Assembly: GCA_002689995.1 (NCBI GenBank)
Contig: NZIV01000063.1
Location: 21,010 to 72,904 of the forward strand
Origin: Fidelibacterota bacterium
GTDB taxonomy: Bacteria > Fidelibacterota > Marinisomatia > SCGC-AAA003-L08 > GCA-2689995
Reading direction: 5' to 3'
DNA length: 51,895 nt
Shown here: positions 2 to 41,175 of the stretch, in pieces
Position numbering within the stretch: position 1 is the first letter of the stretch
How the letters are laid out: each line of letters starts with the position of its first letter
Made by a program: the position numbers and the translations under genes
Notes under the pieces: generated by a model
What the model was told of the DNA's origin: nothing
What the model saw: the letters and a program-made list of their open reading frames with translations, nothing else
Database searches by the model: none

Positions 2-385
2 AATACAGAAGAACTAAAACGTTCATTTCATAATTCCACAAAAATTAATTTATGGAGTTATTTTTGGAAAATTTTATCTATCTTTTTGATTTTACTTGGA
101 GTTATATTTGCTATATATAAATTTACTGGAGATAATTCCGTTTTTAGTAGAAAGTTAAATCAAGATAACCATTTTAAGATATTATACCAGCATTATTTAT
201 CATCAAGACAAAAAATTTTATTAATTAAATCCTTTGATAAATTCATCTTACTAGGTGTGACAGATCAATCAATTAATAAGATTACAGAATTTCAACAACA
301 TGAAATTGATGAGAAGAGTTTAGTAAGTTCACAATCACAACCATTTTTTAATGCTTTATTAGGAAAAAAATATAAAAATGGATAG
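2..385 (+). CDS. fliO: Flagellar biosynthesis protein FliO (5'-truncated by window edge)
   Basis: Frame is open from base 2 (NTEELKRSF...) into the listed ORF. TM helix followed by LSSRQKILLIK...ILLGVTDQSINKI, typical of FliO. Overlaps the fliP start. Confidence 0.75.
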   Translation, partial: NTEELKRSFHNSTKINLWSYFWKILSIFLILLGVIFAIYKFTGDNSVFSRKLNQDNHFKILYQHYLSSRQKILLIKSFDKFILLGVTDQSINKITEFQQHEIDEKSLVSSQSQPFFNALLGKKYKNG

Positions 386-31462: not shown

Positions 31463-32419
31463 ATGAATTATAGAAAACTTGGAAATTCTGGTTTAAAACT
31501 TAGTGAACTATCATTTGGTTCTTGGGTCACTTTTGGTAATCAAATAGATGTAAATTTAGCATCTGAATTAATTAAAACAGCCTATGATGCAGGAGTTAAT
31601 TTTTTTGATAATGCAGAGGCATATGCAGCTGGAGAGTCAGAAAAGATAATGGGCGATGCTTTAAAAAAACTTAAAATACCTAGAGATACATGGTGTATAT
31701 CTAGTAAAGTATTTTGGGGTGGAAATCTACCCACTCAAATAGGACTAAGTGCCAAGCATATACATGACTGCTGTAATAATGCACTTAAAAGATTAAAAGT
31801 TGAATATTTAGATTTATATTTCTGTCATAGACCAGACCCTGATACACCAATTGAAGAAACTGTTCGAGCTATGAACAACTTGATTAAACAAGGAAAAATT
31901 CTATATTGGGGTACATCTGAATGGTCGGCAAATCAGATTGAAGAAGCATTCAAAATAGCCTCAAATAACTATCTAACACCACCAACCATGGAGCAACCTC
32001 AATATAATTTATTAAATCGTGATAGATTTGAAAATGAATATAAAACTATTTTTGAAAAATATTCAATAGGAACAACTACTTGGTCTCCACTTTGTTCTGG
32101 TATTTTAACTGGAAAGTATAAAAATGGAATCCCAAAAAATGCAAGATTTTCTATCGAATCCTATCAATGGCTTTGGGAAAAATTCAAAGAAGATGGTATA
32201 GAAAATCAATTTACTAAAATTCAAAAGTTTTGTGAAATGGCTAGTAAATTAAATTTAACACCTGCACAACTGGCAATAAAGTGGTGCTTAAATAATTCTA
32301 ACGTAAGCACAGTGATTTTAGGTGCATCAAAGAAATCACAACTAGAAGAAAATCTCAAAATTTATGATTTAAATAGTTCTGATATTGATTTTAGCGAAGT
32401 AGAAATTTGTTTTAATTAG
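31463..32419 (+). CDS. Aldo/keto reductase (Kv-beta-like)
   Basis: MNYRKLGNSGLKLSELSFGSW, FFDNAEAY, DLYFCHRPD and WGTSEW. Confidence 0.93.
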   Translation: MNYRKLGNSGLKLSELSFGSWVTFGNQIDVNLASELIKTAYDAGVNFFDNAEAYAAGESEKIMGDALKKLKIPRDTWCISSKVFWGGNLPTQIGLSAKHIHDCCNNALKRLKVEYLDLYFCHRPDPDTPIEETVRAMNNLIKQGKILYWGTSEWSANQIEEAFKIASNNYLTPPTMEQPQYNLLNRDRFENEYKTIFEKYSIGTTTWSPLCSGILTGKYKNGIPKNARFSIESYQWLWEKFKEDGIENQFTKIQKFCEMASKLNLTPAQLAIKWCLNNSNVSTVILGASKKSQLEENLKIYDLNSSDIDFSEVEICFN

Positions 32420-33425
32420 CCTTTTTAAATTTTTCTAATTGAGTCTGATAATATTCATCTTTCGGATTCAATTCAATTGCACGTTTAATGGTTTTTATAG
32501 CATTTTGAATATCACCAAGCAGCCATTCAACCTCAGCCTGTGTATCTAAAACCATTGGTTTAGAATTATCATCTGCTAATTCGACACCTATCTTTGCTTT
32601 TATCAGAGCATCATCTAAATTTTGTTTTAACTCTGTCATTCTCCAAGCATAACTATTCATAACACTTGAACTTTTAGTAAATTTTTCACTCATTTCAAAT
32701 AAAGTTGAAATTTCTTTGGTTGTATCTTTTTCTACAATATAATATTTTGCTATCATTTGGTATGCAGATATACATAAAGGCGATTCTGAGTAATCCTTAA
32801 TGAAATTTTGTAGACCTGTTATATCGCTATTCTCCCAACCTAATTTTGCCATTGCAAATTTCGCAGATATAATTTCATCCTCCATTTCTTCTGGAGCATT
32901 TTTTAAAAATTGAGTGTAATATTTTTCTGAAATTTCAGACTCACCTCTAGCAGAATATTTTTCACCTAATTTAAAAATTATACTATAATCATTCGGACTT
33001 TCTATTAATTTATTTTCCAACACAGAAATAGTATTTTCACCTTCTAGGATTTCTTTAACCATGGGCAAATATTGATCTGGAGGTGCATAACCTATTATAC
33101 GATCTATTTCATTACCATGATTATCTATAAATACAACTGTAGGAAAAATACGAACTTTATATTGGCTTACAATTTGACTTCCCTCACGTTGTCCAGCATT
33201 AATTTTTATACTATTAAATTTATCAGTGAGAGTTAAAAATGAATTATCTAAAAATGTATCAGCTTCCAGCCGAGCACACCATCCTCAGCTATCGGTATAA
33301 AAGTCTAGCATTATTAACTTGCTGCCTGTAATATTTTTCAAATCTTCTAAACTTCCTTTATACCAAGGATAAGTTGGATTAGTATTACATGCAAAAATAA
33401 ACAAAATAAATATTAGTCTTTTCAA
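32412..33425 (-). CDS. Lipoprotein thioredoxin-fold + TPR protein; predicted selenoprotein (Sec47, UGWC)
   Basis: AGGAG RBS, TTG start, lipobox FIFA-C, then MLDFYTDS-TGA-GWCARLEADTF...FPTVVFID...EIDRIIGY running in frame into the listed 218-aa TPR ORF; 337 aa in total. Confidence 0.88.
33255..33278 (-). promoter_or_regulatory. SECIS-like hairpin
   Basis: TGTG-C-TCGGCT-GGA-AGCTGA-TACA; loop G lies 18 nt after the UGA at 33285-33287; locally GC-rich in an AT-rich genome. Confidence 0.65.
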
Positions 33426-39351: not shown

Positions 39352-39427
39352 AATGATTATTAATTTGTTTATGATATCATTTATTTTCTTGTTTAAATTT
39401 ATGTTATTTTATTAAAAAGGAAAATAA

Positions 39428-40105
39428 ATGAAAAAAATATACTTACATCTGTTTATTTTTATTTTATCTAGTTTCGCTATATCACAATTGGAATATTCTT
39501 TAGAAGATGTTAACACTACTTCTTCAACTTATAATTTAAATGTTTGGTATCCAGAATACTCAGAATTTATTACATTACATTATTTTTCAACGCAAGGTTG
39601 AGCTGGCTGAACAGCTACTTTTGTGCAGTTGCACAATTTTCAAAATGAATTAAGAAATACTGATGGATTTACTAATATCGTCTTTATTGCAGTAGGACAA
39701 ACAAATATTAGTAGTTTTAACGAAAACTTTTGCTCTGATTCAGACCTTCCACTTGTTATGGATCCTTACCCTGAACTTCCTTTGAGAGAAATGTTTAATG
39801 CTGCGCATAAAGAAGTTGTTATTGTAGATTCAGAATCTAATATCCTTGGTAGGATAACTTTAAATGGAAATTTAAATAGCAACGAAAAGGATTATATAAG
39901 AAACATTATTAGTGAAAATTATCCTGGAGATTCTATCATTGGAGATATAAATGGTGATGAGATAATAAATGTTTTAGATGTTATACTTGTAGTTAACATA
40001 GTTTTAGGAGCAATTACTGATTTAGATAGTGCAGATGTAAATCAAGATGGTTTAATCAATGTTCTTGATATAATTAACATTGTTAACATTATAATAAATA
40101 CTTAG
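39428..40105 (+). CDS. Secreted thioredoxin-like (redoxin) protein with dockerin; predicted double selenoprotein (U58-A-G-U61)
   Basis: ATG 39428 and signal peptide, then YSLEDVNTTSST...LHYFSTQG-TGA-GCT-GGC-TGA-TATFVQLHNFQNEL in frame with the listed 160-aa ORF; 225 aa; C-terminal dockerin. Confidence 0.85.
39621..39636 (+). promoter_or_regulatory. SECIS-like hairpin
   Basis: TTGTGC-AGTT-GCACAA. The loop GU lies 18 nt after the second UGA and 27 nt after the first; it resembles the apical stem of the E. coli fdhF SECIS (GUUGCAGGUCUGCAC). Confidence 0.7.
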
Positions 40106-40110
40106 TTTTT

Positions 40111-41175
40111 ATGCGTTTTTTACTTCTAATAATTTTTTTTATATGTATTCCTTTCACTCAAACCCAAGAATGTATAAATATGCCTCTTAATTCGATCATA
40201 AGTACTTATAGCATCGGAGATACTATTAGTATAGATGACCAATTACGACCATATAATGTGTGCTATTCATCTGAAAATAATAGTAATAATACATTTAGGC
40301 TTGCAGATTTTAATGGCAATTTAAATGGAGGCCATTATCGAGTAACTTTAATAAGTATGAATGCATCATGGTGACCGGCATGTTATGGATACATCAGTAT
40401 GATGGATCAAATTCTTGAATTTATAAATATAAACAATCAAATAGAGTTTTTAGTTAGTTTTGATGATGGTACAGGACCTAACTCAACATATACATGCAAT
40501 GAATGGGGTAATTTATATAATGAACTTGGCGAATATGGAAATCAACCAATAATTTTAAATGGTGATGATGACTATAATCAAGATGGAGACCCTGATCATC
40601 ATTTATGGAATTCATTTGCAGGAAATTCTTATTCTGCATACGTAATGTTAGATCATCATATGGTTGTTAGATATTTGTTTGATATTCCAGATTTATATCA
40701 ATTTCAATACAACTACTTAACATCACTCATGAATGCGATGAATGGTTGCACAGAACAATCTGCATGTAATTATAGTCATACTGCTATATACAACGATGGC
40801 ACATGTCAATTTGATCAAGAATGTGATGAAAATTTGAACCCTTGTTCGAACTTTTCATCTCATTTAGATTGTATATCTGAATCAAATTGCTTCTGGATGG
40901 GTGATCATTGTATGGAAGGCTCAAATTGTACAGACCCTATCGCAGAAAACTTCAATCCAATAGCAGAAACAACAGGAATCAATGATAATATAGAGTGTAT
41001 TTACTCTCCTTTTATAGAATTTGGCTGTATTTATCCAAGTGCAGTAAATTTTAATAGTGAAGCTCGTATTGATGATGGAACTTGCCAGTTTAATTATAAT
41101 GATGTGAACGAAGACAATATCGTCGATATTTTAGATATTATTATTATACTTTCTGAAATAATAGAGCTTGAATAA
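40111..41175 (+). CDS. Secreted thioredoxin-like protein with Cys-rich repeats and dockerin-like tail; predicted selenoprotein (Sec88, WUPAC)
   Basis: The listed 87-aa and 258-aa ORFs are in one frame, joined by ISMNASW-TGA-PACYGYISMMDQ. FRLADFNG...VTLISM-x-ASW-U-xx-C is a redoxin active-site context; 354 aa. Confidence 0.88.
40388..40408 (+). promoter_or_regulatory. SECIS-like hairpin
   Basis: GAT-A-CATCA-GTA-TGATG-G-ATC; loop G lies 23 nt after the UGA at 40372-40374. Confidence 0.55.
40744..41085 (+). repeat. Three degenerate GCTDxxAxN(Y/F)...DGxC protein repeats
   Basis: GCTEQSACNYSHTAIYNDGTC, NCTDPIAENFNPIA...C and GCIYPSAVNFNSEARIDDGTC. Confidence 0.7.

Follow-up and report, generated by a model that had tools for sequence, protein, structure and literature searches.

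A single covarying hairpin most likely serves as the SECIS element of both UGA codons in a UxxU thioredoxin-fold gene of marine Marinimicrobia

Comparative analysis strongly supports the presence of one conserved RNA hairpin downstream of two in-frame UGA codons, 9 nt apart, in a thioredoxin-fold selenoprotein gene of a marine bacterium, and a single hairpin serving both codons is the most likely explanation of this arrangement. We consider it probable that both UGAs are recoded via this one SECIS hairpin, at 39621-39636, with its register set by the 3′ UGA. The window, that is, the whole 51,895-nt stretch of DNA that was analyzed, is part of contig C34 of a genome of 2.9 Mb with 29.5% G+C, and the orthologous loci with named records come from marine genomes of Candidatus Neomarinimicrobiota / Marinimicrobia (SAR406). 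The features of the window that are relevant to the argument are as follows.

39428..40105, plus strand: gene for a secreted selenoprotein of the thioredoxin fold, with a UxxU motif and a type I dockerin at the C-terminus, stop codon included (225 aa when translated with TGA as U)
39599..39601, plus strand: first of the two UGAs in frame, for Sec58, in the place of the first Cys of the CxxC motif (reading frame; homologues)
39608..39610, plus strand: second of the two UGAs in frame, for Sec61, in the place of the second Cys of the CxxC motif (reading frame; homologues)
39621..39636, plus strand: SECIS hairpin with a 6-bp stem and the loop AGUU (covariation; RNAalifold; loop codons)
39601..39616, plus strand: upstream stem AGCTG (39601-39605) / CAGCT (39612-39616), unconserved and not part of the element
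40111..41175, plus strand: adjacent second selenoprotein gene, ..NASW-U-PAC.., with the TGA at 40372-40374 and a hairpin at 40392-40404 (pairing in orthologues)
about 32415-33422, minus strand: third selenoprotein gene, thioredoxin/DsbD-like domain, ..DFYTDS-U-GWC.., with a TPR-like tail and the TGA at 33287-33285 (hairpin loop GGA at +20..22)

Under translation table 11, the open reading frame that starts at 39428 halts at the TGA at 39599, and a second ORF occupies 39623-40105 in the same frame. With TGA read as U, the region encodes one protein of 225 residues, ...ITLHYFSTQG-U-AG-U-TATFVQLHNFQ..., with Sec at positions 58 and 61. The best NCBIfam match of this protein is NF053656, 'TUGYCR motif thioredoxin fold (seleno)protein' (redoxin_TUGYCR; 77.8 bits, E 7.7e-22, residues 22-156); the score falls short of the family cut-off of 100 bits and indicates a homologue that would lie outside the curated family boundary. 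The Pfam families Thioredoxin_8 (18.4 against a cut-off of 27) and Redoxin (14.1 against 26.6) are both matched below threshold, and a type I dockerin (PF00404 / Dockerin_1) is recognized at residues 172-218 with 28.1 bits, above the gathering cut-off of 22.9. In an AlphaFold2 model built from 33 aligned sequences (mean pLDDT 87.9), U58 and U61 are located between a strand (48-53) and a helix (61-77), at the strand-loop-helix N-terminus, which we take to be the usual spot of the CxxC motif in the thioredoxin fold. The best Foldseek matches of the model in PDB are extracytoplasmic thiol-disulfide oxidoreductases of the ResA, DsbE/DsbF and TlpA types (E 2.5e-7 and target-normalized TM 0.75 to ResA). 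The best explanation of these observations is that the gene product is a thiol-disulfide oxidoreductase of the ResA/TlpA kind, predicted to be exported, whose CxxC redox motif has Sec in place of both cysteines; the signal peptide is predicted from the hydrophobic N-terminus alone, and the C-terminal dockerin presumably anchors the protein at the cell surface.

The reading of the two UGAs as selenocysteine codons, put forward in the first-pass annotation on this DNA, is borne out by comparison, as judged from stop codon usage, the Sec machinery, Cys-containing homologues and conservation among orthologues. Both TGAs, at 39599-39601 and 39608-39610, are in frame with the ORF start at 39428. A six-frame search of 61 genomes (60 relatives of the same order and the window's own) yielded 27 full-length orthologue matches with 44-66% identity, all 27 of which carry two in-frame TGAs, and more distant paralogues with one or two. 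These 27 sequences (Q[GN]-U-x-G-U-T), together with six of a second UxxU subfamily (WE[NST]-U-[GN]G-U-R), make up an alignment of 33 sequences in which both TGAs are present throughout; in a third aligned subfamily the motif is U-G-x-C, so that the second position of the motif is Cys in these UxxC paralogues. Likewise, a scan of GTDB with one genome per species found both TGAs in 34 of 34 loci of the orthologue group, and neither the 27 full-length matches nor the 34 scan loci have Cys at either motif position; the conservation of the two TGAs extends across three families of the order. Furthermore, a profile search of 1.84 billion representative sequences detected 431 relatives at E <= 0.001. 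Of 25 sequences fetched, five are true CxxC proteins (P0030, P0036, P0039, P0043, and P0046), and both of their cysteines align with U58 and U61, so that, as expected of a selenoprotein gene, in-frame UGAs occupy the positions of Cys in homologues. Taken together, these comparisons support the identification of both TGAs as selenocysteine codons.

TGA is an ordinary stop codon in the window's genome: of 1243 stop-to-stop ORFs with 300 codons or more, 193 end at TGA, and past these TGAs the frames close at a median of 5 codons, as they do past TAA and TAG. The genome also encodes the components that selenocysteine incorporation requires, namely tRNA-Sec (65.3 bits with the Rfam model; tRNA-SeC with the anticodon tca according to ARAGORN), SelA (501 bits), SelB, whose gene adjoins selA, and SelD, the gene of which itself contains one in-frame TGA. 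In the assembly, selB (C63:22870-24725, loci L011 and L012) is split into two reading frames near C63:23274-23289, which is either an assembly error or a real recent lesion; in all five relatives checked, selB is a single open frame of 624-643 codons.

With regard to the RNA element, the hairpin described in the first-pass annotation, with the stem TTGTGC (39621-39626), the loop AGTT (39627-39630) and the stem GCACAA (39631-39636), is present in full, and its loop G (39628) follows the A of the first and of the second UGA by 27 nt and 18 nt, respectively, as had been reported. Folding of the region, one of the checks proposed there, gave a divided answer: RNAfold draws the hairpin, but the fold of the single sequence (39590-39660, -15.1 kcal/mol, z = -0.80) is no better than that of shuffled sequences, 40 of 200 of which fold as well. 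Because the single-sequence fold is unremarkable, the case for the hairpin rests on comparison. The other proposed check, covariation across orthologues, came out clearly in favor of the hairpin. In the 33-sequence alignment, its six pairs form in 197 of 198 cells (99.5%), against 18-50% of the cells when, as a control, the 3′ arm is slid by 1-3 columns; compensatory changes occur in three of the six pairs, with 30 cells changed on both sides, and none of 500 shuffles reached the observed covariation score. Orthologues that keep the UGAs without the hairpin, which were named in advance as the observation that would count against it, are not what the GTDB scan found: all six pairs are present in 33 of the 34 UxxU loci, and the loop is AGTT in all 34. 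Moreover, RNAalifold applied to an 81-column alignment returned exactly the hairpin at 39621-39636 and no other structure, and an extended alignment of 24 orthologues (183 columns, from -60 to +120 nt of the first UGA) yielded the same hairpin, with no longer-range conserved structure within this span.

Because the hairpin sits within the coding sequence, its covariation is visible as coupled amino acid changes, in this case of the residues that flank an invariant Gln-Leu (V..H, G..S, R..S, W..S, A..C, I..C, and T..C). The codons of the loop are invariant as well, rare though both are in the genome: Q67 is CAG and L68 is TTG in 23 of 23 orthologues each, and likewise in all 33 aligned sequences. 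Genome-wide, CAG accounts for 22.5% of Gln codons and TTG for 10.4% of Leu codons, and the neighboring Gln and Leu codons of the gene use the common CAA and TTA. Thus, as expected of a selenoprotein gene, there is a conserved stem-loop just 3′ of a UGA with a G in its apical loop; a G in first or second place within the loop has been used as a criterion for SECIS elements (PMC13582414). An Rfam scan of 39400-40500 at E <= 10 gave two chance-level matches to unrelated families and none to a SECIS family.

The position of the hairpin relative to the two codons is informative when set beside genes with a single UGA. Counting from the U of each UGA, the stem starts at +22, the loop G is at +29 and the spacer is 19 nt for the first UGA; the respective values for the second UGA are +13, +20 and 10 nt. 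The elements used for comparison are the following.

selD of the window's genome (single UGA): stem from +13, loop GGA at +20..22
thioredoxin-like gene of the window, minus strand, TGA 33287 (single UGA): loop GGA at +20..22
19 UxxC paralogues: hairpin with covariation, its loop G(U/G/C)U at +20..22
metagenomic TUGYCR-type relatives: of 72 loci classified, 69 are UxxC; all 59 distinct UxxC contexts have the G at +20
CxxC loci of the same metagenome scan (n = 3): 3-4 of 7 pairs only, loop G missing in two of three

The hairpin of the 19 UxxC paralogues, a set from which the locus L071 was dropped because it came without upstream context, is paired in 82% of the cells compared to 26-44% when slid, with compensatory changes in five of seven pairs. 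Among the metagenomic UxxC contexts, at least five of the seven pairs are present in 56 of 59; the classification covers 72 loci because 8 of the 80 could not be assigned by motif pattern. Given that these single-UGA genes put the loop G at +20, the UxxU hairpin has the standard geometry of the family when measured from the second UGA. By protein register, the UxxC hairpin lies exactly 9 nt, or three codons, upstream of the place of the UxxU hairpin. The largest loop G distance among the single-UGA genes examined is +25, in the adjacent W-U-PAC gene, so that the spacing between UGA and hairpin is not rigid in this lineage; a distance of +29 was seen in none of them.

The proposal that one hairpin serves both UGAs thus held up in that this hairpin is the sole conserved structure and covaries, and is qualified in that the loop G stands at the family-standard +20 for the second UGA only. 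Under this proposal, a complex of SelB, GTP and Sec-tRNASec bound to the hairpin would deliver Sec at the first UGA before the hairpin has come close to the ribosome, that is, the 5′ UGA would be decoded from the same hairpin from 9 nt further off, with the 19-nt spacer and the loop G at +29. Three codons on, a second SelB ternary complex on the same folded hairpin would deliver Sec at the second UGA in the usual geometry, and the ribosome would melt the hairpin once this codon has been decoded. The scheme needs two successive SelB ternary complexes; the binding of SelB to the hairpin, the insertion of Sec at both codons, and the order and reloading of SelB are what we infer from the arrangement of the sequence elements. 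A hairpin left at the UxxC position would be unwound, upon entry into the mRNA channel of the ribosome, before the second UGA reached the A site, whereas a hairpin 10 nt past the second UGA would be folded for both decoding events. Together with the conserved geometry, this unwinding argument makes a single SECIS, placed for the 3′ UGA and serving the 5′ UGA as well, the simplest reading. Against it, the geometry is canonical for the second UGA only, the spacing between UGA and SECIS was reported to be critical in E. coli, and selB is frameshifted in the assembly.

The main rival is that the SECIS decodes the second UGA only and that the first is read in another way, by a near-cognate Trp or Cys tRNA or by a Cys-charged tRNA-Sec-like tRNA, or else mostly terminates translation. 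The match of the hairpin to the single-UGA standard (+20) for the second UGA alone speaks for this rival, and a hint of context effects comes from the glycine codon ahead of each UGA (39596-39598 and 39605-39607), which is GGC in 15 of 22 and 19 of 23 orthologues, respectively. Furthermore, the UGAs of UXXU proteins may be read as Cys where a tRNA-ReC exists (PMC13582414). The window's genome has a single tRNA-Sec-like gene, the weaker Rfam matches being ordinary Ser, Leu, His and Cys tRNAs, so that no tRNA-ReC was found in it. Had the first UGA been read as Trp or Cys, some of the orthologues, which share 44-66% identity, would be expected to show TGG or TGY in its place; the TGA at position 58 is invariant in 34 of 34 loci. 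Sec also occupies this position in the UxxC paralogues, and of 72 metagenomic relatives 69 have it there. Hence we regard decoding of the second UGA alone through the SECIS as unlikely, and with it the consequence that little full-length protein is made or that the product is no true diselenide enzyme.

Two other explanations carry far less weight. The first-pass annotation had raised the possibility that the RNA refolds between the two decoding events, with a second stem at 39601-39616 acting for the first UGA and the downstream hairpin for the second. Both stems do exist in the window sequence, and RNAfold draws both, but the upstream stem pairs in 54.5% of the cells of the 33-sequence alignment compared to 46% when slid by +3, and it is missing from the RNAalifold consensus at both 81 and 183 columns. 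Moreover, this stem overlaps both UGAs, 39601 being the A of the first, so that it would be expected to unwind inside the ribosome ahead of either decoding event. Because the stem is not conserved, refolding is not supported and we consider it highly improbable. As a candidate second SECIS, the upstream stem was rejected on the same grounds, with pairing at about the level of the slid controls, and by this comparison it is a chance feature of the window sequence. That no Sec recoding takes place at all, TGA being reassigned to Trp or Gly or the gene being a pseudogene or a product of sequencing error, is barely credible. Public protein sets do show W at the TGA positions (P0001, P0003, and P0007), but 193 long ORFs of the genome end at TGA with their frames closing just past it, the full Sec machinery is encoded, and the two TGAs fall exactly on the CxxC cysteines and are conserved in three families of the order. 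Genetic codes 4/25 and a pseudogene were accordingly rejected, given the use of TGA as a stop in the genome and the orthologue L037, which itself ends at TGA. One SECIS hairpin for both UGAs remains the reading that we prefer.

Single-hairpin decoding of both UGAs also bears on the origin of the UxxU motif. A maximum-likelihood tree of 49 domains was built quickly, with five CxxC proteins as the root. In it, the UxxC lineages form a basal grade and the two UxxU groups are separate, well-supported clades (SH-aLRT 96 and 100) inside an unresolved fork; with its short search, one kind of support and a distant root, this tree is a lead rather than a result. The basal position of UxxC in the tree and the prevalence of UxxC among the outgroup relatives suggest that UxxU derives from UxxC. 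At the ancestral UxxC position, the stem of the hairpin would begin only 1-2 nt past the new UGA. We lean, by a small measure, toward a scenario in which the SECIS register of this family is set by the 3′-most UGA, the hairpin moved three codons downstream when a UxxC ancestor gained its second Sec, and the first Sec has since been decoded at a 19-nt spacing, which is about double the usual. If this is the case, one hairpin would suffice for a bacterial SelB-SECIS complex to work at two different spacings, with reloading required within three codons, and the pairs of UxxC and UxxU paralogues within one genome would be a ready system for measuring the distance tolerance of Sec insertion.

A bacterial SECIS is usually described as serving the single UGA just upstream of it, and UxxU motifs put this rule to the test. 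The textbook element, the SECIS of E. coli fdhF, is a hairpin inside the coding region; it directly follows its UGA, carries G/U in its apical loop and has a minimal stem that starts after a spacer of about 10-11 nt. The hairpin described here resembles it in its location within the coding region 3′ of a UGA and in the 10-nt spacer from the second UGA. It differs in being preceded by two UGAs, in its shorter stem of 6 bp, in showing no evident bulged U and in that the binding of SelB is predicted. For SelL, Shchedrina et al. (2007, PNAS 104:13919) are said to have noted a bacterial SECIS situated within the coding sequence and spaced such that it might support either Sec, or both of them.

The first-pass annotation had implied that the arrangement is new, and here it has to be corrected. 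Zhang and Gladyshev (2008) reported, in the selenoproteome of the Global Ocean Sampling data, a Prx-like 2 family with 'several UxxU-containing sequences' that then had no close homologue in sequenced genomes (PMC2398784). The window protein belongs to this family: the reads under '#Prx-like 2' in supplementary file 1 of that article include ..HYFATQGUAGuTATFGQLSNFQEEL.. and the UxxC form ..FGYFTUGTCTARFGQL.., and one read, compared by eye, hardly differs from the L037 orthologue over the motif and the next ~70 residues (PMC2398784). What the present analysis adds to that description is the placement of the family in SAR406 genomes, the dockerin tail and the conserved selenoprotein neighbor; the passages of the article on Prx-like 2 do not discuss how one SECIS serves both UGAs (PMC2398784). 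For SelL, a UxxU protein with a thioredoxin fold, one SECIS is described as acting on both of two UGAs separated by two codons (PMC4989117); SelL occurs in fish, invertebrates and marine bacteria (PMC2397514). The window protein shares with SelL the fold, the motif and one SECIS for two UGAs, but it is not SelL, scoring 12.5 bits (E 0.087) with NF040769 (SelL_rel_redox) against a cut-off of 120. Another bacterial UxxU case is that of the UXXU-type Group 4 [NiFeSe] hydrogenases, reported in 2026, which, as here, have one predicted downstream SECIS, and for which a single SECIS for both UGAs was raised as a possibility (PMC13582414). There, the protein is unrelated and the motif binds Ni, and for many of the genomes the tRNA-ReC caveat applies (PMC13582414), whereas no such tRNA was found here. 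Two reviews also list UxxU forms in several prokaryotic families. Among curated families the best match is NF053656, with which the CxxC homologue P0046 scores 202.7 bits; the metagenomic relatives are mostly UxxC with the loop G at +20, in contrast to the window protein, which has Sec at both positions and the hairpin 9 nt further downstream.

Hence the novelty is low: the locus is a well-documented instance of something already described and no new kind of system. What is new is the evidence from covariation, the geometry of +20/+29 and its offset of 9 nt from the UxxC paralogues, the assignment to Marinimicrobia and the conserved pairing with a second selenoprotein gene. The idea of one hairpin for two codons at a distance of 9 nt has been put forward more than once (2007, 2026), and the present family offers clean comparative evidence in the form of a covarying hairpin that forces coupled residue changes, a geometry fixed to the second UGA and paralogues in the same genomes with the hairpin exactly 9 nt upstream. 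In literature searches that were aimed at other questions and lay mostly outside subscription journals, we found no bacterial experiment on one SECIS serving two UGAs, and among the titles listed by a full-text search for Marinimicrobia and selenoprotein, none was on the UxxU family.

In practical terms, public protein sets carry wrong calls of the UxxU genes, which are truncated there or have Trp at the Sec sites. Some are held there as fragments that end ahead of the first TGA or begin past the second; other entries are full-length with Trp at the TGA sites (..QGWAGWT.., the three entries named above among them) and were therefore called under a code in which TGA is Trp. As for the glycine codon ahead of the UGAs, GGC makes up only 8.9% of Gly codons genome-wide, and its preference ahead of both UGAs may be a decoding-context effect; the window's own first pre-UGA codon is GGT.

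The adjacent W-U-PAC gene has a hairpin of its own, with the loop GUU/GUA and the G at +25, in which five of five pairs are present in 18 of 19 orthologues (L209, a false regex match, was left out of this count). It directly adjoins the UxxU gene in 19 of the best 20 matches, so that the two genes form a conserved pair, and its product matches no Pfam or NCBIfam family at E <= 1. In the third selenoprotein gene of the window, no ATG is present in the 58 codons upstream of the TGA at 33287-33285.

In two genomes of the same genus (G001 and G002), both of which have an intact selB, the UxxU query gave only dockerin-level matches (E about 1e-11), and the orthologue was not found. The window's genome contains further copies of the gene, namely a second UxxU (58% identical) and two UxxC, at C80:232-891, C6:48841-49485, and C31:5145-5789; given the estimated contamination of the assembly of 7.3%, some of these may belong to another strain. 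The two UxxC copies have identical 81-nt motif windows, from -15 to +66 of the TGA (L056 = L057 and L066 = L084). Finally, a distant relative of 612 aa (P0002) carries five tandem copies of the domain with degenerate motifs (e.g., ..GRATDTACR..), in which the second Cys alone is kept.
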